From Nitrosopumilaceae archaeon (GTDB lineage: Archaea > Thermoproteota > Nitrososphaeria > Nitrososphaerales > Nitrosopumilaceae): a stretch of DNA of 64,000 bases. The position numbers and the translations under genes were made by a program. Below, in pieces: positions 5,100-46,721 of the stretch. The stretch lies in contig CBDCCK010000002.1 in assembly GCA_965214835.1 (NCBI GenBank), forward strand, positions 96,001 through 160,000, read 5' to 3'. Position 1 is the first letter of the stretch, and each line of letters starts with the position of its first letter. A model generated the notes under the pieces. That model did no database searches. It was given only the letters and a program-made list of their open reading frames with translations, and was not told the DNA's origin.

Positions 5100-7247
5100 T
5101 CATGATGATGATGCAGATGACAGCTTCCGGTCAAGCCCGGCCAGTATGTTCCCGATGGCGACATGATTGTTCTTTGCGTCAAGTATGGCAGCGTAGGCCT
5201 CCCTGATGTCCGCATTCGATATCGACTCGTATGCGTCAGACACCGAAAGCATGTGCCTTGTCACGCTGCCGCCATCCATCGCATCACCCCACATCCTTTT
5301 CAGAAGCGGGGGGCTACCGTCGGCAAGGTCGTCGACGCACAGTCTGTCGAGGAGCCTGCCGGCTGCCACGCACAGCTCAAGCGGGTGCGACCCAAGGTCG
5401 ACCAGTATCTTCCCGTCGGGGATCCGGAGATCCCCGCATTCTTCGAGGGAGACCTCGTCGAGTACGACGACCTCAAGGCCGGTCTGAGCGATATCCCATC
5501 CGGACATGACGCCAAGGCTGGTATTGTACAGTATCCTGCCGCACATCCTCCTGAACGCATCCAGGGTGATTGCGCGGGGAGGGGGGCTGTTGCGCACGCA
5601 CATTCTGTATTTTTCGCCATAGCTTGCGTCGAAAAACGGCGTTTTTCTGAAGTAGTCGAACCTGTGTGAAGAGTGTGGATAGCGGGTGTAATGGCTCTCC
5701 CATATCGATGACAGCATCTTCATCTCGTCATTTGTGACGCAGATGACGCCGTCATCCACGTCTCTCTCGTACTTGTCGCAAAGCTTGGCGCCCATCATGG
5801 AATACATCACTATCCTTCTTCCACCGCTAGCCGAAGGCTTTAGGCCGTGACGCCTGATATAGCCGTCAATGGTCTCAATCCCAGAGCCTGCAACGAGCGG
5901 ATCGTCTACGATTCCTGCGTCGTCCGGACGGAAGACGCGGACGTCAGGAGAGTGCTTGTAGACCGCAACAAGCTTGATGCGGCTCGGATTTTTTGCGAGC
6001 AGCAGGCGCCACTGGTGGCCGCCACGATCCATTAGATCCCCGAGACGGCAGGAGGTGCCGTCGACAACCCCGCCCTCGCACAGGACAATCTCCGAGTACC
6101 GGCGGTTGTGTCCCGGGATGTCAATGCCCTGGTCCACTGCCAGGTCAAGAATGCAGTTTTCAGGGCGGTTTATGTGCTCCCTGAAGGATGGGGCGGCCAT
6201 CGAGGACAGCTTTTCTGTGATCATAGAGTCGATGTGCCTGTCAATTCTCATGCCGGTATCTGCAGGAAACCCGTCCCTGTTTGGCAGCGGTCGAAACCTG
6301 CGCTCGTCCTTGACGTGCACTACCATGTCGCCTGCTATGTGCTCAAACGCGCCGGCATACGTGTAGTTGATCGGCATTCGCGCAAGAAACGACGCGACTG
6401 ATGATACGGGACGTCCGGCATCGGCTGCCACCTCGATCAGGTCGTCAGACATGTGAAGCAGCGGCCGCAGTTCAAGCCGTGAATTTGCAGGCGCCCTGCC
6501 GGAAGGACGCGCCATCTCCAGGACCGAGCTTGGCTGCGTGCACATATCAGACAGTATGTTTCCTGACGCGCCAGCCACGGTAATACTCGTTGCGACGCCG
6601 CTGAGCGCGGCGCAGTGGCCTATATACGACTCGAGGGGCTCCCCGACAGCATCAGAACGCATTGTCATCGTGATGCGCGTGCCGTACGAGTCAAGATCTG
6701 CAGGAGCATCCAGGATCTCAAAGCCGAGCCCGCCCTTTCCCATTACTCCGTATTTCTCGCCGGTCTCGCGGGAATACGTCTCGACGATACACACGTCTGA
6801 TATGGTCATGTAGCTGGCAAAGCCCATGCCGAACTGGCCTGACTCTTCCCCGTCAAAGTTGTCGCTGCGGCCCAGCACGGACACCACCTCAAGGAAGCGC
6901 TCCTGGGATATACCCATCGAGTCCACACCGTGTATTACCAACTGGCGGGTCTGCTCGTTTATACTAATATGTATCTCGGGACTGGCGCCGTGCTCTTTTT
7001 TTGCGGTCCGGCAGGCGCGCGCCTCGTTTGCATACATCTCGCGTATTCCGGACAGCGGGCCCGTGTACAGGTCGCGTGAGACGCGCTGTATCATGACGTC
7101 GTGCTCCATGCGGACCGGTATGAGCCCCGTCTTTGGATTTACGGCGCCTGCAAGCCTTTTGGCATGCGAGGAGTCAACGCCAGCAACACATGCGGACTCG
7201 GCGGCAATTACGGGCTTTGATATCCTGATGCCGCTCATTGCCTGCAT
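5100..7247 (-). CDS. HtpG/Hsp90-like GHKL ATPase-domain protein
   Basis: IREMYANEARA (N box), DSMGIS (G1), GQFGMGFASY (G2), GTRI (G3). Confidence 0.8.
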   Translation of the reverse strand: MQAMSGIRISKPVIAAESACVAGVDSSHAKRLAGAVNPKTGLIPVRMEHDVMIQRVSRDLYTGPLSGIREMYANEARACRTAKKEHGASPEIHISINEQTRQLVIHGVDSMGISQERFLEVVSVLGRSDNFDGEESGQFGMGFASYMTISDVCIVETYSRETGEKYGVMGKGGLGFEILDAPADLDSYGTRITMTMRSDAVGEPLESYIGHCAALSGVATSITVAGASGNILSDMCTQPSSVLEMARPSGRAPANSRLELRPLLHMSDDLIEVAADAGRPVSSVASFLARMPINYTYAGAFEHIAGDMVVHVKDERRFRPLPNRDGFPADTGMRIDRHIDSMITEKLSSMAAPSFREHINRPENCILDLAVDQGIDIPGHNRRYSEIVLCEGGVVDGTSCRLGDLMDRGGHQWRLLLAKNPSRIKLVAVYKHSPDVRVFRPDDAGIVDDPLVAGSGIETIDGYIRRHGLKPSASGGRRIVMYSMMGAKLCDKYERDVDDGVICVTNDEMKMLSSIWESHYTRYPHSSHRFDYFRKTPFFDASYGEKYRMCVRNSPPPRAITLDAFRRMCGRILYNTSLGVMSGWDIAQTGLEVVVLDEVSLEECGDLRIPDGKILVDLGSHPLELCVAAGRLLDRLCVDDLADGSPPLLKRMWGDAMDGGSVTRHMLSVSDAYESISNADIREAYAAILDAKNNHVAIGNILAGLDRKLSSASSS

Positions 7248-8901: not shown

Positions 8902-11181
8902 TTATTTGTCGTTTCCAAGCCTTGCATCGGCGTCAAGCGCCAGTGCAAGCATCTTCTCTACATTTTCGGTGTCGGCGTTGCGGTTTGCCAGCAGCCAGAA
9001 CATCCTGCTTATGGTCTTGTCGCGTATCCCGAGCTCCCCGTGAAGGTACAGCATCTTGTGGCGCGACGTGACATAACTCAGGCACTCGCCGGAGTGCTCC
9101 TTCATGTTATTACTCATGACGTCTTTGATGTCGCAGTACTTGTCGGCGGACTTGCCGGTTCTGTCATACCAGGCAGTAGAGATCTTGTAGGGGATGCGCC
9201 TGGCGCTGAGGCACGCCTCCAGTTCAAAGAGGCGGTCACCGGTCTCGATGACGAGCAGCTTTTTGTCTGATTTGACAAGCTCTGCAAGCCTGGGCCAGTT
9301 ATGGAGTACAAGGACTATGTCCTTGCCGGCAGCAGGCATATGCGCAGGGAGCATCGGCCCCTCGCTTGTGACATACGCCGAGCCTTCGGCAGTCCTGATA
9401 AGATCGTCCTCCCGTATGCAGGAGCCGGAGAGCGCACTGGAGGGCTTGGTCAGGCAGTATCCGGTGTCCCAGCGCCCGAGGATTTTGCGCATGACAGGCA
9501 TCCTGCCGTTGTTTACGACGACAGTCATCCTGCCAACGTCTGCAACGCCCCTTCTCTCAGAGAGTACCACGCCTTTTTCCCCGGCCCTTTCCCTGTGGAA
9601 GTGGACTGGGACCTCGGTGACCGCAGGCGGCGCCATACGTTTGACTGCCAGGCCGTGCCTTTTGATGTACCCGTCAAGCGTCTCAATTCCAAGACCCGTG
9701 AACCTGTCCATCCAGACAGACGGATCATCGGGCCGGACGACCTCGATGCCGGGATCATGGCAGCGTACGGCATCGACCTTGGACTTTTCCATCTTTTCGG
9801 CTGCCAGGAACCGGCTGCCGCTGCAGAGTCCGAGCCTTGTGCGGCCGCCTCTGCTGTTACGAACCTGGTGTCTTGCGACTGCCAGGATCTCCTGCATCTG
9901 CTGATCGGACTCACTCCAGAGATTCTCGTCAATGCATGTCATCAGCGTCCGTTTTGGGTGGGAGAGATACTCCTCAAGCGTACCAACGCAGAACTGCTCT
10001 TTGAAGCATTTCTTGAATGCGGCATCAATGCCTGCGGTGATCCTTTTAGACGAGCCGTCGCTGAGCCTCTCCCGGTCAGGGGTAGGCGGGTACTTGCGCT
10101 CGTCAAGTATGTTGACAAACATCCTGGCGCAGTGGTATTTCAAGAAGCCGCCATAACCGTACTCGATTGGAATCCTTGCAAGAAACGTCTGCGCCGCAAA
10201 ATTGTAATGTGGGGTCTCGATTTTGCCGTTCTTCGTCCGTATGATTCTGAACACACAGGCAGCATCAAAGTCGTCATCGCCGAACTCAAAGACGTATGAT
10301 CCCAGAGACTGGTTGCCATTACAGGAGTTGAACAGGGGCTCGTCTTCCGCGCATCTTCCGGCCATCCCGGATATGGTTTCGGGCAGATAGGAGTGCGTTC
10401 CCTCCTCATACGTGTTGGCATACTCGGCACTGACGCGGGATCTGAGGTTCAGGATTGTGGGAACCCCGCTGAGTCGTGAGAGGAACTTTATCATGTCGCA
10501 TAGATGCACCATGTCGATCTTCTCGTACAGGGTGAGGCTTATCCTGGTTCCAAAGTGATCCATGTCAGGCTCCGGCAGCCCCGTCTGGAACCCCATCCCG
10601 TTCTTTCCCAGGACCGAGTACTTTTTGCCGGTCTCCCTAGAGTGGACGTCCATGATCATTATCTCTGACAAACACAGGTATGCGGCGCGTCCGAACCCGA
10701 ACTGCCCGTTCTCCGTTCCCTCAAAGTTGGTGGAGCGGCCAAGGACGGTATACACGTCGGTAAACGTCTCCCAGCTCATACCCATCGAGTCGATGCCCTC
10801 TATTGCCAGGCTGCGGTTTACAGGATCAAGGGTTATCTCTATGCGGGAGTCGGCGCCGTGATGTTTCATTGCGTGGCGGCACGCGCGGGCCTCGTTTGCG
10901 TACAGCTCCCGCAGGCCCGAACTGGCATGCTCGTACAGGTCGTGCGATATCCTCTGGATTACCACGTCCTCCTCCAGGGACGTCCTGATGAACCCGTCCT
11001 TTGTGCCGTCAGGCAGGGAGCCTGTACTGCCGGGGTTTGGGATAGGAAGCGGCTTTTCTGATATTATCTCCGGCTTGTAGTATTTTGTCCCGCTCAAGCC
11101 AGAGCAGTCATCAGAGTCACCCATCGTACGGCACCGGTCCGGATCGCGGGATCGTGGTGCGGCCAGGGGACTTTCCGTCAT
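8902..11181 (-). CDS. HtpG/Hsp90-like GHKL ATPase-domain protein (paralogue of 5100..7247)
   Basis: LRELYANEARA, DSMGMS, GQFGFGRAAY, GTRI; true start may lie further downstream. Confidence 0.8.
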   Translation of the reverse strand: MTESPLAAPRSRDPDRCRTMGDSDDCSGLSGTKYYKPEIISEKPLPIPNPGSTGSLPDGTKDGFIRTSLEEDVVIQRISHDLYEHASSGLRELYANEARACRHAMKHHGADSRIEITLDPVNRSLAIEGIDSMGMSWETFTDVYTVLGRSTNFEGTENGQFGFGRAAYLCLSEIMIMDVHSRETGKKYSVLGKNGMGFQTGLPEPDMDHFGTRISLTLYEKIDMVHLCDMIKFLSRLSGVPTILNLRSRVSAEYANTYEEGTHSYLPETISGMAGRCAEDEPLFNSCNGNQSLGSYVFEFGDDDFDAACVFRIIRTKNGKIETPHYNFAAQTFLARIPIEYGYGGFLKYHCARMFVNILDERKYPPTPDRERLSDGSSKRITAGIDAAFKKCFKEQFCVGTLEEYLSHPKRTLMTCIDENLWSESDQQMQEILAVARHQVRNSRGGRTRLGLCSGSRFLAAEKMEKSKVDAVRCHDPGIEVVRPDDPSVWMDRFTGLGIETLDGYIKRHGLAVKRMAPPAVTEVPVHFHRERAGEKGVVLSERRGVADVGRMTVVVNNGRMPVMRKILGRWDTGYCLTKPSSALSGSCIREDDLIRTAEGSAYVTSEGPMLPAHMPAAGKDIVLVLHNWPRLAELVKSDKKLLVIETGDRLFELEACLSARRIPYKISTAWYDRTGKSADKYCDIKDVMSNNMKEHSGECLSYVTSRHKMLYLHGELGIRDKTISRMFWLLANRNADTENVEKMLALALDADARLGNDK

Positions 11182-15876: not shown

Positions 15877-16191
15877 TCAGTCCTTCTTCAGATACCCTGC
15901 GATTTCCCGCAGAACGGCGGTAATCTCGTCAAGCTTGTCAAGCTTGGTGTCAATCCGGTCAAACCGCTTGTGTATCTTGGAGACCTCGTCATGTGTAAGA
16001 AGCAGCATCGTAATCCCTACGATCGCAGGCATTATAAAGACTCCGTACACGGGCCACTCTCTTAGCAGCTCCAGCACGTCGGACTCCCCGCCAAACATGA
16101 GGAAGAATCCGAACAGAAGCATGCTTACAAATACGACTCCCATCGGTCTTCTGAAGAGGAGCTGTACCTTTGCAGTAACGTGTTTGTTCAT
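15877..16191 (-). CDS. Two-TM protein with LDKLD heptad tail (one repeat fewer)
   Basis: Nearly identical to 15411..15758. Confidence 0.75.
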   Translation of the reverse strand: MNKHVTAKVQLLFRRPMGVVFVSMLLFGFFLMFGGESDVLELLREWPVYGVFIMPAIVGITMLLLTHDEVSKIHKRFDRIDTKLDKLDEITAVLREIAGYLKKD

Positions 16192-16209
16192 GTTGTTTGT
16201 TCCTTCGGA

Positions 16210-16277
16210 CTCCCACACCTGCCTGCCTGTCAGCCTACAAAGTAGGTAATGCAGGATTTGGAGCCCTTGTCAGGTCA
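16210..16277 (-). ncRNA. Unknown structured motif X, copy 4
   Basis: Ends about 19 nt upstream of the ATG at 16191. Confidence 0.6.
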
Positions 16278-16312
16278 CTAAAAAATTTATGGTGTTTGAA
16301 GGAACAGGATTC

Positions 16313-16741
16313 CTACGGCACCCGCCTGTCCATGGCCGACTTTATGCCTCCCAGAACAGACAGTATTTCCTTTAGCACGACGCGCGTCATCTCGCCGTCG
16401 TCTTTGAGTGTCTTGCGCGTCATCTCGCCGTCGTCTTTGAGTGTCTTGCGCGTCATCTCGCCGTCCTTTCTGATGGCCTCCGTGAGTGTCTTGCGCGTCA
16501 TCTCGCCGTCCTTTCTGATGGTATCCTTGATTCCGGATGCGACATCGGCCGTAAGGAATGACATTATCAGTCCTACGAAGCCGGCGATAATAAAGGCTAT
16601 GCCCTCGCCGATCATGTCGATTCCGTCATTGATATGGGAGGACACGGCCATGACGACGCCGGTGCCGGTTATCCATCCGAACACGATGTTGGCGCGCCTG
16701 ATGATCCTGTCCTTGATTCTCTTCCTCATGTTCACGTTCAT
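16313..16741 (-). CDS. Two-TM protein with DGEMTRKTL repeats
   Basis: Two hydrophobic helices followed by four DGEMTR repeats. Confidence 0.7.
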   Translation of the reverse strand: MNVNMRKRIKDRIIRRANIVFGWITGTGVVMAVSSHINDGIDMIGEGIAFIIAGFVGLIMSFLTADVASGIKDTIRKDGEMTRKTLTEAIRKDGEMTRKTLKDDGEMTRKTLKDDGEMTRVVLKEILSVLGGIKSAMDRRVP

Positions 16742-16775
16742 TTTTTCTCCATTTGGCGTCTCACTCGCCGTGCAT

Positions 16776-16852
16776 TTCCCACACCGGCCTGCCTGTCAGC
16801 CCCGTGCCGCAATGGGACGGGATGATGCCGGTTTGGAATGGTTGGCAGGTCA
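16776..16852 (-). ncRNA. Unknown structured motif X, copy 5 (covarying)
   Basis: CCTGC/GCAGG becomes CCGGC/GCCGG and CTCC/GGAG becomes TTCC/GGAA, while the loop blocks are unchanged. Confidence 0.65.
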
Positions 16853-16883
16853 TAAAAAAAATAAAGGGGTGTTACGGCCTTTT

Positions 16884-17555
16884 TCAGCAGCCGTATGACT
16901 GTGCCCACGCTTCTCGCGCGAACTCGCTTTTTGTGCAGAACCTTTCCAGTATCTCGGCATGCCCGGAGGTGACAAGCATCTCGTTGATCGAGACCGCATC
17001 GGAGCTGTAATGACAGATCACCTTTGCTATCACCCTGTCATACGAGCCGCCGGGCTGGCCGTCGTCCACGTCGTATACCGCGACGCTTCCGACCGGGCAC
17101 TTGGAGCTGACGTATGCCGTGGCATCCTTGTACCCGAACTCCCCCCTCTCGGGGGTGTTGACTAGTGCAAGCCTGACCCGCTTGCCCTCAACGTCCAGCG
17201 TGTCGCCGTCGATGATCCTCGTTACCGCACCGGCCTTCAGGCCGATTACCGATGACAGCCCGGTGCCGCTCTGGTTGAGATACACCTGGTGACGCCCAAG
17301 GGGGTCTGCAGGCCTGTCCTTGTCGTCTGCCTGCTGGCTGTCTGGCGTGCTGTGCCAGTTGCCGGATCCGCGGCGGCTTTCTGCTGCGCCTGTGAACTGG
17401 GAATCAACGGCATGGCCTATGCTGTCAACAACGCTGTCCACGCCGCCTGAAACGACTGGCGTGAAATGGGCCGAGATTGCCGGCGCCACAACGATGATGG
17501 CCATCATAAGCACCATTCCGATGATGATGGTTCCTGTTGTTCTTAGTTTGGTCAT
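16884..17555 (-). CDS. Membrane-anchored thermonuclease (SNase family)
   Basis: RIIDGDTL, RVRLALVNTPE, YDRVIA and INEMLVTSGHA motifs; N-terminal TM helix. Confidence 0.9.
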   Translation of the reverse strand: MTKLRTTGTIIIGMVLMMAIIVVAPAISAHFTPVVSGGVDSVVDSIGHAVDSQFTGAAESRRGSGNWHSTPDSQQADDKDRPADPLGRHQVYLNQSGTGLSSVIGLKAGAVTRIIDGDTLDVEGKRVRLALVNTPERGEFGYKDATAYVSSKCPVGSVAVYDVDDGQPGGSYDRVIAKVICHYSSDAVSINEMLVTSGHAEILERFCTKSEFAREAWAQSYGC

Positions 17556-18707: not shown

Positions 18708-18790
18708 CGTTGAGTGAAAGTAAGAAGAAGGAAAAAAGAATGGGAGGGGAGGCCATGAGAGGGCCATCCCCGATCAAAGGTTCGAACGGC

Positions 18791-18919
18791 TCACCGGTAT
18801 ACCGGTACGGTACGCCCCAGGTTCCGGAGGTAGCATTCATCCTTGAAATCTGCTATGGCTGCCAGCTCATCGGACTTCTCAAGGTCCTCTGCTGCGCCTG
18901 TTTCATAGATGTAATCCAT
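18791..18919 (-). CDS. MDYIY micropeptide, copy 2
   Basis: MDYIYETGAAEDLEKSDELAAIADFKDECYLRNLGRTVPVYR. Confidence 0.55.
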   Translation of the reverse strand: MDYIYETGAAEDLEKSDELAAIADFKDECYLRNLGRTVPVYR

Positions 18920-18978
18920 GAGCGTAATGTGGAAATTCTTGTAAAGTGTAAATTGTAAAAAGAAAAAAAAAGGGGGGA

Positions 18979-19533
18979 TCAGTCTCTGCCGAAGAGACTG
19001 TTCCATTGTGCCAGGAGGCGACCAAAGACAGGCCACGAATACCCGTCGTCGTGACAAGGATGCGCGCCATACCTTCCAACGAAGAGATCGGCCCATACCT
19101 CGCTGGCAAAACTCTCACGATTCATGAGTCCATCGGCCATCTCCCGATGGCAGTGCCTCGTGAGCGCAGAGAGGTTCATGCCGTGTTTGATGGCGTGCCC
19201 TATCCACTCGGGATCGCCGGAGCGCGGCAGCAGGTTGGCCTCGTGATGCCCAAGCTCGTGGTAGAGTGTGTTCCTGACACACGCGCCGCAGTGCTGAATG
19301 CCGCAGATGGCAATCTCCATTGAGGAAGGGTCATAGTACCCGTAACAGTCAGGTCTCGAATCTTCCACGTAAAGGAGGCAGACGCCGCGCCTCAGGTACG
19401 ACGGTATGCGAAAATACTCCTCACGGATCATCTCGACTTCGTGGACGTACGGGCGCATCTCCGCGCAGACGGACACTGCCGTCTGTGGTTGCTCGCGGGG
19501 TCGGCTATTGAAGTGGTGAACAGATGTGTTCAT
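18979..19533 (-). CDS. Zincin-like HExxH metallopeptidase
   Basis: GYYDP...YHELGH...SEVWAD (gluzincin-type third ligand). Confidence 0.75.
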   Translation of the reverse strand: MNTSVHHFNSRPREQPQTAVSVCAEMRPYVHEVEMIREEYFRIPSYLRRGVCLLYVEDSRPDCYGYYDPSSMEIAICGIQHCGACVRNTLYHELGHHEANLLPRSGDPEWIGHAIKHGMNLSALTRHCHREMADGLMNRESFASEVWADLFVGRYGAHPCHDDGYSWPVFGRLLAQWNSLFGRD

Positions 19534-19601
19534 TGTAATGTGTAACATGGAAAAAATGGGGGATGGGATGCGACAAACAGCCGCATCCGGATGAGGGGAC
19601 T

Positions 19602-19691
19602 TTAGTCCCAGATTTCCCGGTCTTCGGGATCCTCTTCGAACTCGCGGATTATGCGAGGGTAAAAGGGTGTCTTTTTCTTTTTGGAATTCAT
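19602..19691 (-). CDS. Possible 29-aa micropeptide (MNSKKKK...)
   Basis: Short ORF followed by hairpins and a T-tract; identical copy at 21411..21500. Confidence 0.3.
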   Translation of the reverse strand: MNSKKKKTPFYPRIIREFEEDPEDREIWD

Positions 19692-19817
19692 TACTGAAAT
19701 TTCTGGAATCAGGAAATGCCAAAGTCCTCTGCTGCGCCTGTTTCATAGATGTAATCCATGAGCGTAATGTGGAAATTCTTGTAAAGTGTAAATTGTAAAA
19801 AGAAAAAAAAAGGGGGA

Positions 19818-20375
19818 TCAGTCTCTGCCGAAGAGACTGTTCCATTTGGGGAGCAGGCGCCTGTAGGTGTCCCACGAATAGTGGAAACAGCTCCATCTGG
19901 ATCCGTGCCTTCCAACGAAGAACTCTGCAAAGACTTCCCCTGCGAATGTGTGCGTGTCCATCTCGCCGCGCTCCATCTTCTGATGGCAGAACTCAGTGTA
20001 CCACGAAAGGCTCCTGCCAAACTCAAGGGATGCAGCAGTCCAGTCCGGGTGTGCCCAGAGCTTGTGCGTCTTGGAGCAGTGGTGCCCGAGCTCATGGTAG
20101 ATGAGAGACCTTACGCATCTGCGACAGTGCTGCAATCCACAGACGGTGATCGTCTGATCCGTCCAACAATAGAACCCTCCACCTTCCGGTCTGGGCCCTG
20201 CAATGTGCAGACAGCGGATACCGCGCCTGAGATCAGGGCGGACGCGAAAGTACTCCTTGCGGATTATTCTGACAGCATGCTCATGTACGAGCATTTCCTT
20301 GCTGACAGTGAACTTCGGCGTGTAGCGCTCCGGAGAGCGTCGGCATTTGAAGATGTTTGTAAACATGTTCACCAT
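19818..20375 (-). CDS. Zincin-like HExxH metallopeptidase (divergent paralogue)
   Basis: GFYCW...YHELGH...GEVFAEFF; ends WNSLFGRD like its paralogues. Confidence 0.75.
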   Translation of the reverse strand: MVNMFTNIFKCRRSPERYTPKFTVSKEMLVHEHAVRIIRKEYFRVRPDLRRGIRCLHIAGPRPEGGGFYCWTDQTITVCGLQHCRRCVRSLIYHELGHHCSKTHKLWAHPDWTAASLEFGRSLSWYTEFCHQKMERGEMDTHTFAGEVFAEFFVGRHGSRWSCFHYSWDTYRRLLPKWNSLFGRD

Positions 20376-20600
20376 AATGTAGAAAAATCGGGGTATCGTA
20401 GTGAGAGGTCTTGAAAAAACCTGTCACTCTGCGTTCTAGACTTTGGATTCGCGGAACCTGCGGCGGCCGGGACACTTCACACCAGCGCCGGTGCCACAGG
20501 GATTGTTGGAGGTTGTGATTCTGGAAAATCCTGAAAAACTGAAAGAAAAAGAATGGGTGGGGAGGACTTGAGGATCCTCCCGGATCGAGGAGCGAATGAC

Positions 20601-20729
20601 TCACCGGCTGGCTGGTACGGTACGTCCCAGGTTCCTGAGATAACATTCGTCCTTGAAATCTGCTATGGCTGCCAGCTCATCGGAGGTCTCAAAGTCCTCT
20701 GCTGCGCCTGTTTCATAGATGTAATCCAT
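20601..20729 (-). CDS. MDYIY micropeptide, copy 4 (copy 3 at 19709..19759 is truncated)
   Basis: MDYIYETGAAEDFETSDELAAIADFKDECYLRNLGRTVPASR. Confidence 0.55.
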   Translation of the reverse strand: MDYIYETGAAEDFETSDELAAIADFKDECYLRNLGRTVPASR

Positions 20730-20787
20730 GAGTGTAATGTGGAAATTCTTGTAAAGTGTAAATTGTAAAAAGAAAAAAAGGGGTGGA

Positions 20788-21342
20788 TCAGTCTCCGCCG
20801 AAGAGACTGTTCCATTGTGCCAGGAGGCGACCAAAGACAGGCCACGAATACCCGTCGTCGTGACAAGGATGCGCGCCATACCTTCCAACGAAGAGCTCGG
20901 CCCATACCTCGCTGGCAAAACTCTCACGATTCATGAGTCCATCGGCCATCTCCCGATGGCAGTGCCTCGTGAGCGCAGAGAGGTTCATGCCGTGTTTGAT
21001 GGCGTGCCCTATCCACTCGGGATCGCCGGAGCGCGGCAGCATGTTGGCCTCGTGATGCCCAAGCTCGTGGTAGAGTGTGTTCCTGACACACGCGCCGCAG
21101 TGCTGAATGCCGCAGATGGCAATCTCCATTGAGGAAGGGTCATAGTACCCGTAACAGTCAGGTCTCGAATCTTCCACGTAAAGGAGGCAGACGCCGCGCC
21201 TCAGGTACGACGGTGTGCGAAAATACTCCTCACGGATCATCTCGACTTCGTGGACGTACGGGCGCATCTCCGCGCAGACGGACACTGCCGTCTGTGGTTG
21301 CTCGCGGGGTCGGCTATTGAAGTGGTGAACAGATGTGTTCAT
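20788..21342 (-). CDS. Zincin-like HExxH metallopeptidase (near-identical to 18979..19533)
   Basis: Duplicated at a 1809-bp offset; YHELGH motif. Confidence 0.75.
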   Translation of the reverse strand: MNTSVHHFNSRPREQPQTAVSVCAEMRPYVHEVEMIREEYFRTPSYLRRGVCLLYVEDSRPDCYGYYDPSSMEIAICGIQHCGACVRNTLYHELGHHEANMLPRSGDPEWIGHAIKHGMNLSALTRHCHREMADGLMNRESFASEVWAELFVGRYGAHPCHDDGYSWPVFGRLLAQWNSLFGGD

Positions 21343-21577
21343 TGTAATGTGTAACATGGAAAAAATGGGGGATGGGATGCGACAAACAGCCGCATCCGGA
21401 TGAGGGGACTTTAGTCCCAGATTTCCCGGTCTTCGGGATCCTCTTCGAACTCGCGGATTATGCGAGGGTAAAAGGGTGTCTTTTTCTTTTTGGAATTCAT
21501 TACTGAAATTTCTGGAATCAGGAAATGCCAAAGTCGGCGGAGTTATATGGTGGGATAATTGTACAGGAAATGGTGAT

Positions 21578-23172
21578 GAGGGCTCAGACTGCTCCCTGTC
21601 TTCATTGCATCGCAGTGATGCTCAGAATGAATGGTGTCTCATCATCGCCCTCGTTTGTGTAGCAGAATAATGCGGGAATCTAATCGGCAAAGCAGGTTGG
21701 AGTTATATTACAGAATAATGATTCAGGAAATGGTGATGAGGGCTCAGACAACGCCAGATTCATCATGAATCAGACTGGGGGTGTCTCATCATCGCCCTCG
21801 TTTGTGTAGCAGAATAATGCGGGAATTTTCAAAGTCAGAATGGCTGGAGTTATATGGTGGAGTGTGGTACGAAACATGGTGATGAGGGCTCAGATGTCAC
21901 GGCTTTCTTCATAGCCACGACAGGCTCGGAGATTATTGCTGATCTCGGCCCTTTGTTCTTCATCATCGCCCTCGTTTGTGTAGCAGAATAATGCGGGAAT
22001 TTTCAAAGTCAGAATGGCTGGAGTTATATGGTGGAGTGTGGTACGAAACATGGTGATGAGGGCTCAGACAACGCCAGATTCATCATGAATCAGACTGTGT
22101 GTGTCTCATCATCGCCCTCGTTTGTGTAGCAGAATAATGCGGGAATTTTCAAAGTTGGAATGGCTGGAGTTATATGGTGGAGTGTGGTACGAAACATGGT
22201 GATGAGGGCTCAGACAACGCCAGATTCATCATGAATCAGACTGTTGGTGTCTCATCATCGCCCTCGTTTGTACAGCATAATTTGCAGAAGTTTCTGCTTC
22301 AAAGTTGGCTGGAGTTATATGGTGGAGTGTGGTACGAAACATGGTGATGAGGGCTCAGACTGATCTCTGTCGTCATTGCATCGCAGTGATGCTCAGTATG
22401 AATGGTGTCTCATCATCGCCCTCGTTTGTGTAGCGGAATAATGCGGGAATCTAATCGGCAAAGCAGGTTGGAGTTATATTACAGAATAATGATTCAGGAA
22501 ATGGTGATGAGGGCTCAGATAGGTAGCTGTCTTCATTCACGAAGTCAGAATAACAGGCTGTCATCATCGCCCTCGTCTGTGTAGCGGAACAATACGGGAA
22601 TCTCGGCGGCAAATCAGGTTGGAGTTATATGGTGGGATGATAATTCAGGAAATGGTGATGAGGGCTCAGACTGACTCGACCGTCATTGCATCACAATGAT
22701 GCTCCGGATGAATGGAACTCATCATCGCCCTTGTTTGTGTAGCGGAATAATACGAAAATCAAAAGTTAGAATGGCTGAAGTTATATGGTGGAGTGTGGTA
22801 CGAAACATGGTGATGAGGGCTCAGAATGCTAACTGTCTTCATTCGTGAAGTCAGTATAACAGGCTGTCATCATCGCCCTCGTTTGTGTAGCAGAATAATG
22901 CCGGAATGACCGGGTTGGAGTTATATTGCAGAATGATGATTCGGGAAATGGTGATGAGGGCTCAGACCTATAGCTGTCTTCATTCGTGAAGTCAGAATGA
23001 ATGGAACTCATCATCGCCCTCGTTTGTGTAGCAGAATAATGCGGGAATCTAATCGGCAAAGCAGGTTGGAGTTATATTGTGGAATGATAATTCAGGAAAT
23101 GGTGATGAGGGCTCAGATAGGTAGCTGTCTTCATTCGTGAAGTCAGAATGAATGGAACTCATCATCGCCCTC
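21578..23172 (-). ncRNA. Tandem array of 11 box C/D guide sRNAs
   Basis: Each unit reads GAGGGCG-ATGATGA(C)-guide-CTGA(D')-loop-ATGAAGA/ATGATGA/ATGACGR(C')-guide-CTGA(D)-GCCCTC. Units: 21578-21652, 21738-21799, 21884-21973, 22058-22119, 22204-22265, 22349-22423, 22509-22574, 22660-22732, 22815-22880, 22956-23021, 23107-23172. Confidence 0.9.
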
Positions 23173-23271
23173 GTTTGTGCAGCGTAATAATGCCGGGATG
23201 GATCTGTATCTCAATCAAGTCGGACAGTCAGTTGCAGGGGGGTATAATGCTCAAAAAATGGCTGGTTTTGC

Positions 23272-23509
23272 CGTCCTCGAATTCGGGGACGCTTGGCGGA
23301 TTTTTCGGCGTTTTTGAAGAGTTGTCTTAAAGATAGAGATTTTTCCTAATGTTGCAGTTCTGTTTTGTTTGGGATTATTCCCGGTTTTTTGTGCCTACCT
23401 CTGGATCTTTTGTATTAAGGACGTTTTGCGGGGGTATACTATCCAGTTTTTGGGGGCGTCCCCGATACCGGGGACGGAGGGGCAAAAGCGTCCCCGAATT
23501 CGGGGACGC
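23272..23509. promoter_or_regulatory. Three palindromic operator/centromere-like sites
   Basis: Perfect 22-bp palindrome GCGTCCCCGAATTCGGGGACGC at 23488..23509; variants at 23272..23292 and 23456..23476. Confidence 0.65.
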
Positions 23510-23547
23510 CTTTTTGGCCATTAAATGCAAACCGTGCTGCGGTATGC

Positions 23548-24459
23548 ATGGGAAGAAGCACAGAGTCCACGCCGGCCGGCGGGAAGGCGGCATCTCTAGG
23601 AGGCGCCGACATCGCCGTCGGGCTGGACATCGGGACAGGATCAGTCAAGGTCGCGACCAGAAGGCACCGCTTCAAGTTCCCGTCGGTCGTGGCAAGGGGC
23701 CGGGCAATATCCGTCGACGGCTCGGAGCCCGAGTCCGTGTTTGTCGGGGAGCAGGCAATGCGGCAGGAGCACGTCAGGTCCATGCTGCTCAAGACGCCAG
23801 TATACCGGGGGGTGCCGACTGCGATGGACGACTATATCGAGCTGGTGCGGCACGCCCTCGACCTGGTGATCAGGGCCGACAGGAACACGGTCTGGCACGG
23901 GCCGTCAGGATACTCGGAGATGGCAATAGTGGCAGGCATCCCGTACAACTCGCGGGACAGGGTGGAGGCCATAAAGAAGGCAGTGCAGGCCGAGTTTGCC
24001 CCGCACAGGTTCGGCGTGATGTTCCAGGCCAGGGCAACGCTTGAAAACGAGGGGATGAGGGACGGAATAGTGTGCCATATCGGCCACGGGACGACAGAGA
24101 TGATGGCGGTAATCGGCGGGAACACCGCATACGGGGAGACCGTGCCTCACGGCGTGGGAGACGTCGTCATGGCAGTCACGGGATCCAGGACAGGATACAC
24201 CGACCACTCGGTGTTTGCTTCGGGCTCGCAGCTGCTGGCAGAAAACAGGCGCATACTTGCCGGCCACATAGCCGACAGCCTTGAGAAGATAGTCATAGAC
24301 TATCCGGGGCTGGACGTGGTGTTTGCAGGCGGCGGGGCGCTTGTACCGAAGCTGGTAGGCGAGATACGGGTCAGGACGTCGGGGACTGTCAGGACGGCAG
24401 ACGAGCCGGTGTTTTCAAACGCCCTGGGAATGCTGAAGAAGGCGACGGGGCTGTGCTGA
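23548..24459 (+). CDS. ParM/StbA-like actin-family ATPase
   Basis: GLDIGTGSVK (phosphate 1), HIGHGTTE (phosphate 2), AGGGA (adenosine), NALG (connect 2). Confidence 0.85.
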   Translation: MGRSTESTPAGGKAASLGGADIAVGLDIGTGSVKVATRRHRFKFPSVVARGRAISVDGSEPESVFVGEQAMRQEHVRSMLLKTPVYRGVPTAMDDYIELVRHALDLVIRADRNTVWHGPSGYSEMAIVAGIPYNSRDRVEAIKKAVQAEFAPHRFGVMFQARATLENEGMRDGIVCHIGHGTTEMMAVIGGNTAYGETVPHGVGDVVMAVTGSRTGYTDHSVFASGSQLLAENRRILAGHIADSLEKIVIDYPGLDVVFAGGGALVPKLVGEIRVRTSGTVRTADEPVFSNALGMLKKATGLC

Positions 24460-25578: not shown

Positions 25579-26018
25579 CTGCCGCCCTCGGGGAATAATG
25601 CGGCATCCGGGCCTGAAACTGCAGGACACGGAACGTCAGGCAGCGCCTGTATCCGGGGCGCCAACCGGATCCACTGCAAGCTCAAAACCGGACTCTTCCA
25701 TGGACGCGGCGATCCTCTTTGAGGTATCCACGCAAAGCATGCACGTCTCGTCGGATATGACGCCGAGCCCCCCTGCGCGACCTTTTTCCATAGACCCGTG
25801 ACGATGGCACGTCATACGGCGGGGCCATCATATCGTCCACGTCGCGATCGCATTTCCGGCTACGGCGGTATCCTGCGCGCCGGGCGGTTCCGGTGCCTAC
25901 GAGCCAGGCCATGTTGCAGATACCCTGAACTCCTTTAGTGTAACAGGTCGGGCTCTGGAAGTTCAGGCATGAATTTTACCACCAAAGAGGCCTCCGCAGA
26001 TGTAATTCGTGCCTAAAA

Positions 26019-27218
26019 TCACAAGTCACTTCCAAAGTCCGAGCTGTTACCCTTTAGTTCCTTTTTCGAGTTTCGCTTTCTGATTGCCGTTGTCGTGACG
26101 TCGCAAAAACCGTAATGCGACATCATGTCTGCATAAATCCTCTCGGTCGGAACTACGGTCCCGTAGAACGTGGAGTTTCCTATTATATAGTGGGCCCTGG
26201 CACCCGGCCTGAGTACGCGTCGCACGGACTCAAAATGCCTCGACATGTCGTCGCAGTACTTGCCCACGTAGTTTGACAGGACCTTCCCGCTGCGGTCGTT
26301 TCCTGCAATGCTGCGCAGTATCTTCCCGACATATTCAGGGATCCACGACCTTCCACCAGTCCAGCCTGCAAGCCTGCTGGTGGCAATTCCCCACGTCCCG
26401 CCGATGGTACGCCAGTCCATCTCGCCTGCATCGCGCCCGCTTGAAAGGTGGCCAAGCCAGTACATGAACGGACGCAGTTCGCGTATGTATGACATTCTGT
26501 TGGCGTACGGCGGGGACGTAATTATGACGTCAAACATGGATGCGGCGTCCGAAAACTCGCGGGAATCCCCGAGCATGACGCTTACCTTCCCGTATACCGG
26601 CCGTCCAGCGCCGGCGATGACAAAGTCCAGGTTACGCAGAAAGACATCCCTCATCCCGGCACTGGACTGCACGCTGTTCGGCGCGTCCTTGAACGACATG
26701 GACTGGTGGCCGAAATCGGCGCAGGAGAGCTGGATCAGCGTCCTGCAGAATGCGACGTAAAGCAGGTCAGACACGCCGCCCCCGGTCCGCATTATCCCGG
26801 TCTTGAGGCGCCTGATGAACATCTCGGCGTCACATGACCACCACCGGCGCATGTTGTGGATCGGGGGGGACGGCTCTGGCTGTACATGTGGCCCGTCTTC
26901 CAGGATGAGACGTCCAGCCCTTTTGGCGGATCTTATCGTGTCTGCACCGTAATGCCCCGTCTTTGCTCTGGCCAGCCACACCAGGAACGGGTTTACGTCT
27001 ATCGTGGTCGCATCATGACCCCGGTCTGCCGCACATAGTGCAGTAGTACCCACGCCGCAGAACGGATCAAGTATCAGACTGCCTGCAGGACACCGTGATA
27101 TGATCTCGTCGACGATCCTGACAGAATATGCCGGGGTAAGACGCAGCCATCCGTGTCTGCCTGCATCCGTGTTGAATTTGTAGGTATAGTCGCTTCTCTG
27201 CTCTAGCGCAGCCATCAC
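26019..27218 (-). CDS. N4C DNA methyltransferase (alpha arrangement)
   Basis: DPFCGVGTT precedes TSPPY. Confidence 0.85.
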   Translation of the reverse strand: MMAALEQRSDYTYKFNTDAGRHGWLRLTPAYSVRIVDEIISRCPAGSLILDPFCGVGTTALCAADRGHDATTIDVNPFLVWLARAKTGHYGADTIRSAKRAGRLILEDGPHVQPEPSPPIHNMRRWWSCDAEMFIRRLKTGIMRTGGGVSDLLYVAFCRTLIQLSCADFGHQSMSFKDAPNSVQSSAGMRDVFLRNLDFVIAGAGRPVYGKVSVMLGDSREFSDAASMFDVIITSPPYANRMSYIRELRPFMYWLGHLSSGRDAGEMDWRTIGGTWGIATSRLAGWTGGRSWIPEYVGKILRSIAGNDRSGKVLSNYVGKYCDDMSRHFESVRRVLRPGARAHYIIGNSTFYGTVVPTERIYADMMSHYGFCDVTTTAIRKRNSKKELKGNSSDFGSDL

Positions 27219-27383
27219 TTGTCCCTCCCCAGCAATCCCCTCAATACAGACCGCGTTCCGTCTCTCAGCGCGGATTGATTGCGCCTGAAGAACCCGGCCA
27301 GATCATACCCCGTAATGTGATGTATAAAGTCAAACGTGGATGATGTCGGCTCCTGTATCCCGGCTCCGGCAGTCCCGTCCGGC

Positions 27384-27659
27384 CTACGGCCTATCCCGCC
27401 CATCCCCCAGCCTGTCCCTGAGGATGTCACGAATTTCATCGAGGGTAGATGACATACGGTCCAGCTTGTCCAGCTTGGCATCGATACGGTCCAGCTTGTC
27501 CAGCTTGGCATCGATACGGTCCAGCTTGCCTCCAAGCAGCTCCTCGGTCTTTCTGATTCTCCTTTCGCTCAACCACAAGTTGATTCCAAATAACGGCAAA
27601 GCAAATAAAGCCGAAAAGAACAGCCACGTCCGGATGGCCTCGCCGTAGACGGCATGCAT
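27384..27659 (-). CDS. LDKLD heptad-repeat membrane protein (5'-truncated copy)
   Basis: HAVYGEAIRTWLFFSAL matches the middle of 63127..63555. Confidence 0.6.
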   Translation of the reverse strand: MHAVYGEAIRTWLFFSALFALPLFGINLWLSERRIRKTEELLGGKLDRIDAKLDKLDRIDAKLDKLDRMSSTLDEIRDILRDRLGDGRDRP

Positions 27660-39820: not shown

Positions 39821-40367
39821 GCTTCAATGGGACCACGACATTATCGTCGCGGAAATGGATGATGGCGCCGTCTTCGCCTGCCGTCATAACGGGCTTCAAT
39901 GGGGCCGCAACTTTATCGTCGCGGAAAGATATAATGCGAGATTTAACACAGGAACTCGGAAACTTGCTTCAATGGGGCCGCAACTTTATCGTCGCGGAAA
40001 GGTCGGAACCATGGGACGGATTGGCGGGACGGGAGGACGCTTCAATGGGGCCGCAACTTTATCGTCGCGGAAAGGTCGGAACCATGGGACGGATTGGCGG
40101 GACGGGAGGACGCTTCAATGGGGCCGCGACATTACCGTCGCGGAAATTCGTGAGGGCCCTGGAAATGATGATGCGTATATCACAGCTTCAATGGGGCCGC
40201 GACATTACCGTCGCGGAAATAGCTTTCTGCATATGCCGTTACATGCATCGTCATTACGCTTCAATGGGGCCGCGACATTACCGTCGCGGAAATTGGGTAA
40301 TGACGTGACTACCATATCCCTGCAGGGCAACGCTTCAATGGGGCCGCGACATTACCGTCGCGGAAAT
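39821..40367 (-). CRISPR. Type I-G-like CRISPR array, 8 repeats and 7 spacers
   Basis: 36-bp repeat GCTTCAATGGGGCCGCGACATTACCGTCGCGGAAAT (two variants) at 39821, 39893, 39966, 40039, 40112, 40185, 40258, 40332; spacers 36-38 bp, spacers 3 and 4 identical; minus orientation ends in ATTGAAGC. Confidence 0.97.
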
Positions 40368-40593
40368 ACTGCAATGCCGACAGGTTCGGCCATTGCCTGT
40401 GCGTGACAGGCATCTTTTTTGTACAGCCCTTGCGTTTTTCGCACCACACATGCCGCGATGGCATGCGTCCTCACACTCACATATAATACATTTTCAAGCG
40501 CCTCCTCACAGCGGTGGTACCCAGGATCCCTCGCATGCCACGCCTGCCGGTGACACCAGAGACATACGTGACGATCTGACGCATATGCAGGAT

Positions 40594-46709: not shown

Positions 46710-46721
46710 CGGCCGGGCCCC

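Follow-up and report, generated by a model that had tools for sequence, protein, structure and literature searches.

We describe a tandem array of 11 box C/D guide RNA genes in a 64,000-nt stretch of DNA from a Nitrosopumilaceae archaeon (hereafter the window), and consider it probable that these are functional genes carried as cargo by a family of plasmid-like or integrated mobile elements of Nitrosopumilaceae-like ammonia oxidisers, borrowing the host ribonucleoprotein (RNP) and methylating host rRNA. C/D guide RNAs usually count as housekeeping genes of the chromosome. In this case, a plasmid-like module conserved in its make-up (a nuclease gene, the guide array and an actin-like partition gene) appears to move rRNA-directed guides between ammonia-oxidising archaea, and none of these guides is seen in related genomes that lack the module. 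Active guides would make the pattern of rRNA modification a horizontally transferable, strain-variable trait that includes, among its predicted sites, the catalytic adenosine of the peptidyl-transferase centre (PTC), and the comparison of array-bearing with array-free ribosomes would constitute a direct test of the roles of individual 2'-O-methylations. The array may also be viewed as a natural intermediate between snoRNA-type guides and arrayed TIGR guides.

An earlier note on this DNA had proposed an 11-unit tandem C/D array on the minus strand, with a constant terminal stem, boxes C, D', C' and D and two guides in every unit, a repeat unit of 140-175 nt and semi-conserved linkers. Direct reading of the minus strand and a motif scan agree on this architecture, giving exactly 11 complete box C/D sRNA genes arranged head to tail between positions 21578 and 23172, with gene lengths of 62-90 nt and a start-to-start spacing of 141-174 nt. 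Stem, boxes and guides are complete in 11 of 11 units. The terminal stem spans 6 bp and reads GAGGGC/GCCCTC in 10 units, with AAGGGC in unit 4; box C is ATGATGA preceded by G, and box D is CTGA, in all 11. The D' box reads CTGA in nine units, CGGA in unit 4 and CCGA in unit 9, and the C'-like box is TGATGA in three units, TGAAGA in six and TGACGA or TGACGG in two. Each unit carries a first guide of 11-13 nt and a second of 10-12 nt, and the 22 guides form a redundant set with 18 distinct sequences. Tandem Repeats Finder describes the array as 8.3 copies of a 151-nt period, and no open reading frame (ORF) of at least 80 aa overlaps positions 21532-23348.

All units lie on the minus strand, and several share guides. 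The D' guide of unit 1 (23107-23172, 66 nt; R1 score 83 bits) pairs with LSU rRNA positions 2073-2083, with A2076 as predicted target; unit 2 (22956-23021, 66 nt) has an identical D' guide and differs in its D guide, the last 6 nt of which are the reverse complement of the last 6 nt in unit 1. The same target is predicted for the D' guide of unit 4 (22660-22732, 73 nt), which contains an internal hairpin, and the D' guide of unit 6 (22349-22423, 75 nt, also with an internal hairpin) forms only 8 bp at the A2076 site, while its D guide is shared with a unit in genome G151. The D' guide of unit 3 (22815-22880, 66 nt) pairs with LSU 2551-2560, with A2554 (E. coli A2451) as predicted target, as does that of unit 5 (22509-22574, 66 nt), whose D guide is that of unit 1. 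Small-subunit rRNA is addressed by D guides: that of unit 7 (22204-22265, 62 nt) pairs with SSU 906-915, with C909 as predicted target, and recurs in unit 8 (22058-22119, 62 nt), whose D' guide differs from that of unit 7 at two positions; C909 is also the predicted target of unit 10 (21738-21799, 62 nt). The D guide of unit 11 (21578-21652, 75 nt) pairs with SSU 1324-1333 (10 bp, one G-U), with C1327 as predicted target. Unit 9 (21884-21973, 90 nt) has a long middle part; its D guide, which also occurs unchanged in a dispersed paralogue at C2:1121377, forms 10 bp with the anticodon arm of tRNA-Asp(GTC).

The ten linkers between the units (75-85 nt each, within 21653-23106, minus strand) are semi-conserved and fall into two sequence variants. 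In each, a conserved 5' flank precedes the stem, and there are AT-rich boxes that may act as promoters of individual units. Units 2 and 3 differ at only 8 of 117 positions of scaffold and linker, yet at 12 of 24 guide positions. The guides change more than the scaffold in only two of nine unit pairs (units 2 and 3, p=2e-6; units 6 and 11, p=0.03); there is therefore no general hypervariability of the guides.

The identification of the units as archaeal-type C/D sRNAs, advanced in the earlier note on anatomical grounds, withstands whole-genome controls. A strict motif scan of the 3.22-Mb genome returned 11 matches, all of them array units, and none in the reversed genome; a minimal scan (box C, box D and a stem of at least 5 bp) returned 15 matches, 11 of them in the array, and again none in the reversed genome, so that the array holds 11 of about 15 recognisable C/D candidates. 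Among 59 distinct related sequences, in an alignment fitted to the model, 95.4% of stem cells pair, a level reached by 0 of 500 shuffles, and changes on both sides are seen at six of six pairs. These compensatory changes, together with the strict conservation of the boxes, argue for selection on an RNA. Comparison with covariance models gave a mixed picture: against Rfam snoPyro_CD (RF00095, cut-off 45 bits) unit 10 scores 45.7 bits, but units 8 and 7 remain at 40.7 and 39.8 bits, and the ten units other than unit 10 fall below the cut-off of every family. The matches listed by E-value are mostly to C/D families, on the minus strand.

Pairing with the genome's own rRNA exceeds chance. Under a criterion of at least 10 bp with at most one G-U pair, spanning the N+5 position, 6 of the 18 distinct guides pair with rRNA over 10-11 bp; shuffled guides give a mean of 0.80, 0 of 300 shuffles reach six, and none of the 18 guides pairs with reversed rRNA. 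The remaining 12 distinct guides form fewer than 10 bp. The predicted targets are LSU A2076, LSU A2554, SSU C909 and SSU C1327. The LSU A2076 site is addressed by guides in five genomes and the SSU 905-909 stretch in four (G000, G016, G152 and G245); LSU A2554, the peptidyl-transferase adenosine, is addressed in two, on different RNA scaffolds. Guide families are kept between genomes whose SSU rRNAs are only 94-98% identical, and are shared across genera. Published accounts, in their accessible text, place the hot spots of archaeal C/D guidance in domain IV and the PTC (PMC7994747, PMC4644070). The critical catalytic group, according to the portion of PMC13215694 available, is the 2'-OH of A2451, and its methylation should impair peptidyl transfer; a simple view of the modification as helpful therefore sits uneasily with units 3 and 5.

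Complementarity to tRNA is not above chance, with two guides against a null mean of 2.47. One further match, of 11 of 12 positions between the D' guide of unit 8 and a 96-nt 'tRNA-Thr' called by ARAGORN at C2:87939, was set aside because the ARAGORN assignment is questionable and the guide consists of a simple CA repeat. Perfect 12-mer matches of the guides to their own genome number 0 against 5.5 expected (10 of 300 shuffles are as low), counts of 11-mer and 10-mer self-matches are unremarkable, and nowhere in the genome do both guides of one unit match within 60 nt of each other.

The genome encodes L7Ae, Nop5 and fibrillarin as single genes (C2:1297221, C2:361373 and C2:360409, respectively), all distant from the window. 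Searching the genome with the Pfam Nop model at E<=1 retrieved Nop5 alone and no second Nop-domain match, and a tblastn search with Nop5 against the window (best E 0.54) revealed no Nop5-like frame. The statement that the window lacks a Nop-domain, fibrillarin or Tas gene accordingly holds at the level of these sequence searches, and any loading of the units must draw on the host proteins, in keeping with the proposal that the array borrows the host C/D RNP.

The array lies in a region with accessory and mobile character. Three copies of a 21-nt palindrome (23272-23509), which may represent operator or centromere sites, separate it from a gene for an actin-like, ParM-type ATPase (23548-24459, plus strand; Pfam ALP_N 29.8 bits, cut-off 26.3) that is divergent from the array; no ParR-like adaptor gene was recognised beside it. 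Homologues of this actin-like protein (ALP; 47-58% identity by tblastn) adjoin arrays in genomes G151, G153, G245 (two copies) and G221. A Staphylococcal-nuclease (SNase) homologue is encoded at 16884-17555 (minus strand; Pfam SNase) and likewise has tblastn homologues near arrays elsewhere. At a distance of 20 kb from the array, the minus strand (43713-48563) carries a pair of ATPase genes of VirB4/TrbE type (46722-48563) and VirD4/TraG type (43713-46709), with Pfam matches to TraG-D_C (24.6 bits), P-loop_TraG (44.2 bits) and AAA_10 (30.5 bits). The region had been called a conjugative element, and its accessory nature and type IV secretion (T4SS) ATPases agree with that description, but neither an integrase nor an att site unites the array with the T4SS genes: no integrase was found among the 40 of 84 window ORFs scanned, and a search of C2:1-400000 for repeats of the tRNA-Arg gene yielded only short chance matches.

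Positions 1-60000 of the window lack a collinear counterpart in three of four congeners compared; in the fourth and closest, G080, they match in patches only. A control region containing the fibrillarin and Nop5 genes matches all four congeners at 64-86% identity. The unit model finds nothing at E<=0.1 in G039 (98% complete) or G061 (96%), two near-complete congeners that keep fibrillarin and Nop5. Assembly contigs from four runs were also compared: those of X1 and X3 are identical to the window and end at the edges of the array, and contigs of X5, from another study, cover 20787-21665 and 23142-23986 with 8 and 12 differences. The contig joints in these four runs revealed no element ends.

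Searching for the array DNA by BLAST within the family gave matches in just 4 of 151 genomes, and a covariance model was therefore needed to locate the remaining relatives. Run on other Nitrososphaeria genomes, the model did find related units: the class-wide scan at E<=1e-5 matched 10 of 151 genomes, with only two single matches outside the family. The family covariance tally of 39 of 151 genomes, G093 included, is not a count of this type of array, because most of it reflects another sRNA, conserved and present in single copy, whose stem is GATGC (15 of 15 single matches inspected); no other result draws on G093. Of 11 flanked loci, six have an ALP homologue next to the units and six an SNase homologue. 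Three ORFans of the window (15877-16218, 16197-16898 and 18979-19896) likewise recur at arrays. Gene orientation was measured at four loci (the window, L042, L045 and L060), and in each the ALP gene and the array are divergent; in L042, as in the window, palindromic repeats fill the ALP-proximal intergenic region. Genome G245 harbours two copies of the module that are 97-99% identical over several kb; in G221 just one unit accompanies the ALP gene. Neighbours at other loci include restriction-modification genes, transposases, an ArdC-like gene and a HerA/VirB4-like ATPase gene; G152 has two loci amid ordinary-looking genes, and at one of them (L044) the units are visibly degenerate. A viral collection contained no match to the unit pattern and no ALP relative. 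The pattern scan of metagenomes returned six short contigs, of which L064 and L067 carry a related unit and L066 a unit-like match; the other three (L063, L065 and L068) look like chance matches in GC-rich coding DNA.

Under the reading that we favour, in which the array is the cargo of a mobile element, each unit would be transcribed from its own upstream AT-rich box or within a longer precursor, and the transcript trimmed to a stem-closed RNA. This RNA would fold into C/D and C'/D' kink-turns, assemble with L7Ae, Nop5 and fibrillarin, each encoded once by the host, and direct 2'-O-methylation to the nucleotide paired with the fifth guide position upstream of D' or D, with at least four guide families directed to the conserved host sites LSU A2076, LSU A2554, SSU C909 and SSU C1327. 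Since the guides address conserved host rRNA sites, the element would add modifications that are not predicted in array-free congeners, and since several of them match functional rRNA sites, a mobile element may be rewriting the modification of its host's ribosomes. How the element might benefit is a more speculative matter. One possibility, which we regard as rather unlikely, is that the plasmid reprograms ribosomes by RNA guidance through the fibrillarin RNP, with the 2'-OH of the catalytic A2451 among the predicted targets, either shielding them from toxins or antibiotics that act on the PTC or decoding site, or throttling translation as a means of addiction or host control.

That 11 of the genome's roughly 15 C/D candidates sit in the array and that their guides address conserved rRNA sites could instead indicate a cluster owned by the host, that is, a normal guide set amplified in tandem within a variable genomic island and not mobile cargo. 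Chromosomal-looking neighbours at the two G152 loci, and the fact that element ends were not found, would fit such an origin. We nevertheless deem it unlikely: the two near-complete congeners have no model match despite keeping fibrillarin and Nop5, the whole window is without collinear matches in congeners, and array, ALP and SNase homologues recur together in different contexts and genera, twice within G245. The redundancy of the guide content and the degenerate units at L044 would fit a locus in decay, in which one or two sRNA genes were captured and then multiplied into copies without function. We hold this to be highly improbable, because all 11 units retain flawless C and D boxes and the 6-bp stem, and because guide families are conserved across genomes at the SSU rRNA divergence given above.

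Two further readings, both of which we hold to be very unlikely, concern what the repeats are for. The earlier note had considered a CRISPR-like library of guides or an orphan relative of TIGR arrays, and a defence or offence system of this kind, relying on a Nop-like effector that has escaped recognition or on the host RNP acting on mRNA, would be consistent with the array architecture, the mobile setting, the divergent guides of the otherwise near-equal units 2 and 3, and the roughly two thirds of distinct guides without a convincing cellular target. The library reading is at odds with guides that are few, redundant, conserved in the arrays of other genera and complementary to conserved rRNA, and with the lack of any place in the genome where both guides of a unit match within 60 nt. 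Kinship with TIGR is not supported either, since sequence searches returned no second Nop-domain match in the genome at E<=1, no Nop5-like frame in the window (E 0.54) and no Nop or Tas gene nearby, and units of 62-90 nt with canonical kink-turn boxes and linkers of 75-85 nt misfit, in size and spacing, TIGR arrays and their 36-nt RNAs as presented in the accessible part of PMC12045711. The repeats could also function mainly as DNA, serving the actin-like partition protein encoded next to them as a centromere-like site of parC type, to which the likeness to sRNAs would be secondary or a dual use. The ALP gene directly adjoins the array, divergently, in several genomes. Type II partition loci typically carry arrays of direct repeats upstream of a parM-type gene. 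Compensatory stem changes and strict boxes speak instead for selection on RNA, the ALP gene of G221 is accompanied by one unit only, the intergenic stretch next to the ALP gene is already taken up by separate palindromes in the window and L042, and no ParR-like adaptor was identified.

Mobile features of C/D guides were described as yet to be discovered in a 2021 review, as far as its accessible text goes (PMC7994747), and the open-access literature on C/D sRNAs in Nitrosopumilus, Nitrososphaera and archaeal conjugative elements, in which the term 'C/D' is not literally searchable, returned no mobile C/D arrays. Thaumarchaeal integrative-conjugative elements, as portrayed in the main text of PMC6563490, share with the window a VirB4/VirD4 pair, DNA methylases, many ORFans and a strain-specific region; unlike the window, they come with no such RNA cargo there, the terms 'sRNA', 'non-coding', 'actin' and 'ParM' being absent from that main text. 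Polycistronic snoRNA clusters of plants and trypanosomes and the MITE-like sRNAs of Pyrobaculum calidifontis resemble the array in being clustered or multi-copy and in evolving by duplication and guide replacement, but they are, in the material available from PMC6009581, chromosomal and without linkage to partition or conjugation, and the P. calidifontis copies are dispersed where those described here are arrayed. With TIGR-Tas systems, going by the accessible portions of PMC12045711 and bioRxiv 10.64898/2026.09.09.750476, the array has in common tandem dual-guide RNAs related to snoRNAs, frequent residence in mobile elements and repeats that are kept while guides change. TIGR arrays combine repeats of roughly 12 nt with 9-nt spacers into 36-nt tigRNAs (PMC12045711), whereas the present units measure 62-90 nt, carry kink-turn boxes, are separated by long linkers, have no adjacent Nop or Tas protein, and bear guides that are conserved and match rRNA.

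The closest resemblance is to archaeal box C/D sRNAs (snoPyro_CD and sR families), with which the array shares unit size, boxes, dual guides of about 12 nt, a short stem, complementarity to functional centres of rRNA and dependence on the host RNP. That such genes are normally dispersed, as the earlier note had it, proved too strong in the light of the accessible text of the 2021 review, where clusters of two or three are frequent (PMC7994747). Set against these, the array of this mesophilic ammonia oxidiser joins eleven genes in a single tandem arrangement with homogenised linkers, forms part of a plasmid-like accessory module found again in other genera, and includes a guide family predicted to address the catalytic A2451.

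Eleven box C/D sRNA units lie head-to-tail on the minus strand between positions 23172 and 21578, a plan read from the sequence on which a motif scan and parsing by coordinates concur, and the tandem guide RNA array proposed in an earlier note is thereby confirmed. Every unit, numbered from the 23172 end, is closed by a 6-bp stem (GAGGGC/GCCCTC, with unit 4 beginning with A) and comprises a box C (G followed by ATGATGA), a first guide of 11-13 nt, a box D' (CTGA in nine units, CGGA in unit 4 and CCGA in unit 9), a short loop or hairpin, a C'-like box (TGATGA in three units, TGAAGA in six, TGACGA or TGACGG in two), a second guide of 10-12 nt and a box D (CTGA) that leads into the closing stem. 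Units are 62-90 nt long, start 141-174 nt apart and are joined by linkers of 75-85 nt in two sequence variants; Tandem Repeats Finder reports a period of 151 and 8.3 copies, and no ORF of at least 80 aa overlaps 21532-23348. A strict motif scan of the whole 3.22-Mb assembly returned 11 matches, which are the 11 array units, and none in the reversed genome. Without the stem requirement nine matches were obtained, all in the array (control, 0), and a minimal scan for box C, box D and a stem of at least 5 bp gave 15 matches against 0 in the control, with four of the 15 outside the array. The box and stem pattern is far beyond chance. In Rfam, unit 10 matches snoPyro_CD at 45.7 bits, just over the cut-off of 45, units 8 and 7 score 40.7 and 39.8 bits, under it, and C/D families on the minus strand predominate in the E-value listing. 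The second guides of units 1 and 2 (22956-23172) differ in their last six letters only, which are exact reverse complements and may record a 6-nt inversion or template-switch mutation. Just downstream of the array lies a direct duplication of about 1 kb (18733-19726 and 20546-21535, 96% identity); ORF 20788-21531 duplicates a portion of ORF 18979-19896, and neither has a Pfam match.

Predicted targets were sought by taking as guide the 12 nt upstream of box D' or D and accepting uninterrupted pairing through the fifth position with no more than one G-U. By this rule, six of the 18 distinct guides form duplexes of 10-11 bp with rRNA of the organism itself; because they fall into four families, they are not independent. 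The D' guides of units 1, 2 and 4 form 11 Watson-Crick pairs with LSU 2073-2083 (predicted target A2076), a site at which the variant D' guide of units 6 and 11 keeps 8 bp, and those of units 3 and 5 pair with LSU 2551-2560 over 10-11 bp (predicted target A2554). Among the D guides, those of units 7, 8 and 10 match SSU 906-915 over 10 bp (predicted target C909), and that of unit 11 matches SSU 1324-1333 over 10 bp with one G-U (predicted target C1327). The signal is supported by both controls: shuffled guides gave a mean of 0.80 pairing guides, with none of 300 shuffles reaching six, and none of the 18 guides paired with reversed rRNA. The remaining 12 distinct guides reach less than 10 bp on the organism's rRNA and tRNA complementarity is at chance level (2 versus a mean of 2.47), which goes against a complete target set; the 10 bp that the unit 9 D guide can form with the anticodon arm of tRNA-Asp(GTC) lack statistical support.

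Numbering was transferred by aligning the organism's rRNAs to the E. coli operon, with D2449, m2G2445, Psi2457, m2G966/m5C967 and G1401 assumed as landmarks. On this basis, we take LSU A2554 to be E. coli A2451, LSU A2076 to lie at about A1969, beside helix 71, SSU C909 to be C970 in helix 31, and SSU C1327 to correspond approximately to G1386. Two papers place known archaeal hot spots of guide-directed methylation in domain IV helices 68-71 and the peptidyl-transferase region (PMC7994747, PMC4644070). A2451 is an odd predicted target, because a review describes its 2'-OH as the critical group in peptide-bond formation (PMC13215694).

A pattern scan across 185,579 species genomes located the same stem and boxes in three MAGs that carry the label Nitrosopumilus sp., whose SSU rRNA is 94-96% identical to that of the window organism. 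A covariance model made from 15 units recovered, in its own genome, the 11 array units and two dispersed relatives with the same stem, which may be remnants of related elements. About 10 kb from one (C2:1620630-1620701, 46 bits), close to a tRNA-Met gene, there are fragments with homology to window 26019-27535; the other (C2:1121377-1121469, 29 bits), whose D guide is that of unit 9, adjoins an N6_N4 DNA methylase paralogue (C2:1120272-1121030). Elsewhere, the model detects a cluster of five to six units with an ATGGGC/GCCCAT stem in G014, of the same genus, and unit clusters in G016, G041, G151, G152 and G153; G080 carries a 98% identical array fragment, and the complete genome G245 has two arrays, of 7 and 5 units. 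In all, 39 of 151 family genomes contain a match, but in most of them the match is solely to another sRNA, conserved and single-copy, whose stem is GATGC. This GATGC/GCATC-stem sRNA is conserved in 15 family genomes (L018-L032), and the window's genome yielded no copy of it; the D' guide of this sRNA shows complementarity to the sRNA's own 3' flank and, in the case of G041, to LSU around 2603-2613. Over 59 distinct sequences, in an alignment fitted to the model and therefore favouring structure, 95.4% of closing-stem cells are paired and all six stem pairs change on both sides, a level reached by none of 500 shuffles. Guide families recur between genomes, some shifted from the D' to the D position or to another scaffold: the A2076 site is addressed in five genomes, the SSU 905-909 stretch in four (the window's own, G016, G152 and G245) and the A2554 site in two. 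The guides are therefore conserved and of a working type, and not a library of spacers with rapid turnover.

The array's neighbour is a divergent gene 375 bp away that encodes an actin-like, ParM-type ATPase (ALP_N, 29.8 bits against a cut-off of 26.3), with three 21-nt palindromes in between. Among 11 array or unit loci taken with their flanks, an ALP homologue (47-58% identity) stands beside the units in six (window, G151, G153, G221 and twice in G245, where one copy is interrupted by a transposase) and is divergent from the array in all four loci measured (window, L042, L045 and L060). A staphylococcal-nuclease homologue is nearby in six of the 11, and further neighbours include MmeI and other restriction-modification genes, transposases, an ArdC-N-like protein, PIN and Fic genes, a HerA/VirB4-like ATPase and a TBP paralogue. 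The last, at L060:13315-13854 in G245 (Pfam TBP, E=7e-34), lies about 1.2 kb from the ALP gene of the module, whose two copies in that genome are 97-99% identical over several kb. The window also carries, among the 40 of 84 ORFs scanned, four DNA methylases, a nuclease homologue of this kind, a PAPS-reductase-like gene, an HD protein and many ORFans, together with a VirD4/TraG-like and VirB4-like ATPase pair at 43.7-48.6 kb. By blastn, positions 1-60000 show patches and no collinear match in the four other genomes of the genus, and the closest relative, G080, matches in the array fragment and a few pieces only; as a control, 3.66 kb around fibrillarin/Nop5 match almost end to end in all four congeners (64-86% identity). 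In two of these congeners, G039 (98% complete) and G061 (96%), the covariance model matches nothing at E<=0.1. Several observations speak against a clean element: the 40 of 84 ORFs scanned include no integrase, a search for repeats of the tRNA-Arg gene within C2:1-400000 yielded no att repeat, an asparaginase gene lies in the 20 kb that separate the T4SS genes from the array, and the two G152 loci, one of them degenerate, have ordinary-looking neighbours.

Other features of the region were recorded in passing. An element of about 112 nt (25940-26051) is repeated at 40 or more sites across the genome and occurs in G080 as well. Contig depth over it shows a spike of about 70-fold, along with many loose ends, and it resembles a MITE or an insertion-sequence end. 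Two large ORFan genes (5100-7247 and 8902-11181; 715 and 759 aa) form a paralogous group with genes upstream of the window at C2:72204-77113, which suggests tandem or nested related elements. An Rfam CRISPR-DR16 match at 40332-40369 (38.6 bits) is probably a false call, lying inside ORF 39855-40406 of a repeat-protein family with 33 tblastn matches, mostly at C2:2.48-2.49 Mb. The assembly's second small contig, C1 (13,188 bp, GC 52.5%), could be an extrachromosomal element.

The assembly encodes one fibrillarin (C2:360409-361068), one adjoining Nop5 (C2:361373-362029) and one L7Ae (C2:1297221-1297493), all distant from the window (C2:96001-160000), and no second Nop-domain gene at E<=1 with Pfam Nop; array RNAs would therefore have to use the host proteins. 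In C/D sRNAs, L7Ae binds the kink-turns, Nop5 and fibrillarin follow, and methylation falls at N+5. Each unit would accordingly be transcribed, L7Ae would attach to the stem-closed RNA at both kink-turns, C/D and C'/D', Nop5 and fibrillarin would then be recruited, and the RNP would methylate the N+5 nucleotide of rRNA while the ribosome assembles. A conserved flank with AT-rich boxes precedes each unit, also in other genomes, and suggests per-unit promoters; a long precursor is equally possible. The array would provide several gene copies for just four clear rRNA sites, so that dosage may be relevant. Between units 2 and 3, scaffold and linker are shared (8 of 117 mismatches) and 12 of 24 guide positions differ, which shows modular guide replacement on a homogenised repeat. 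Candidate reasons for a mobile element to keep such an array are that it shields ribosomes from toxins or antibiotics acting at specific sites, that it tunes or throttles translation in the host, or that it simply hitch-hikes.

The array belongs with the archaeal C/D sRNAs. TIGR-Tas systems are defined by an adjacent Nop protein and a compact 36-nt unit, whereas the array has units of 62-90 nt and no Tas-like partner detectable by sequence: Pfam Nop and a tblastn search of the window with Nop5 (best E-value 0.54 over 20 residues) bear out the earlier observation that the window holds no Nop-domain or Tas gene. The array is therefore not TIGR-Tas, and the interpretation first attached to it is supported in part, its guide RNAs and missing partner genes standing and its readings as a CRISPR-like library or an orphan TIGR relative finding no support. 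In open-access text, where "C/D" cannot be matched literally, we found no description of such a mobile C/D array. What is new is its scale, with 11 units in tandem against the two or three genes per cluster given in a 2021 review, its location within a recurring plasmid-like module of mesophilic ammonia oxidisers, and the predicted A2451 target.
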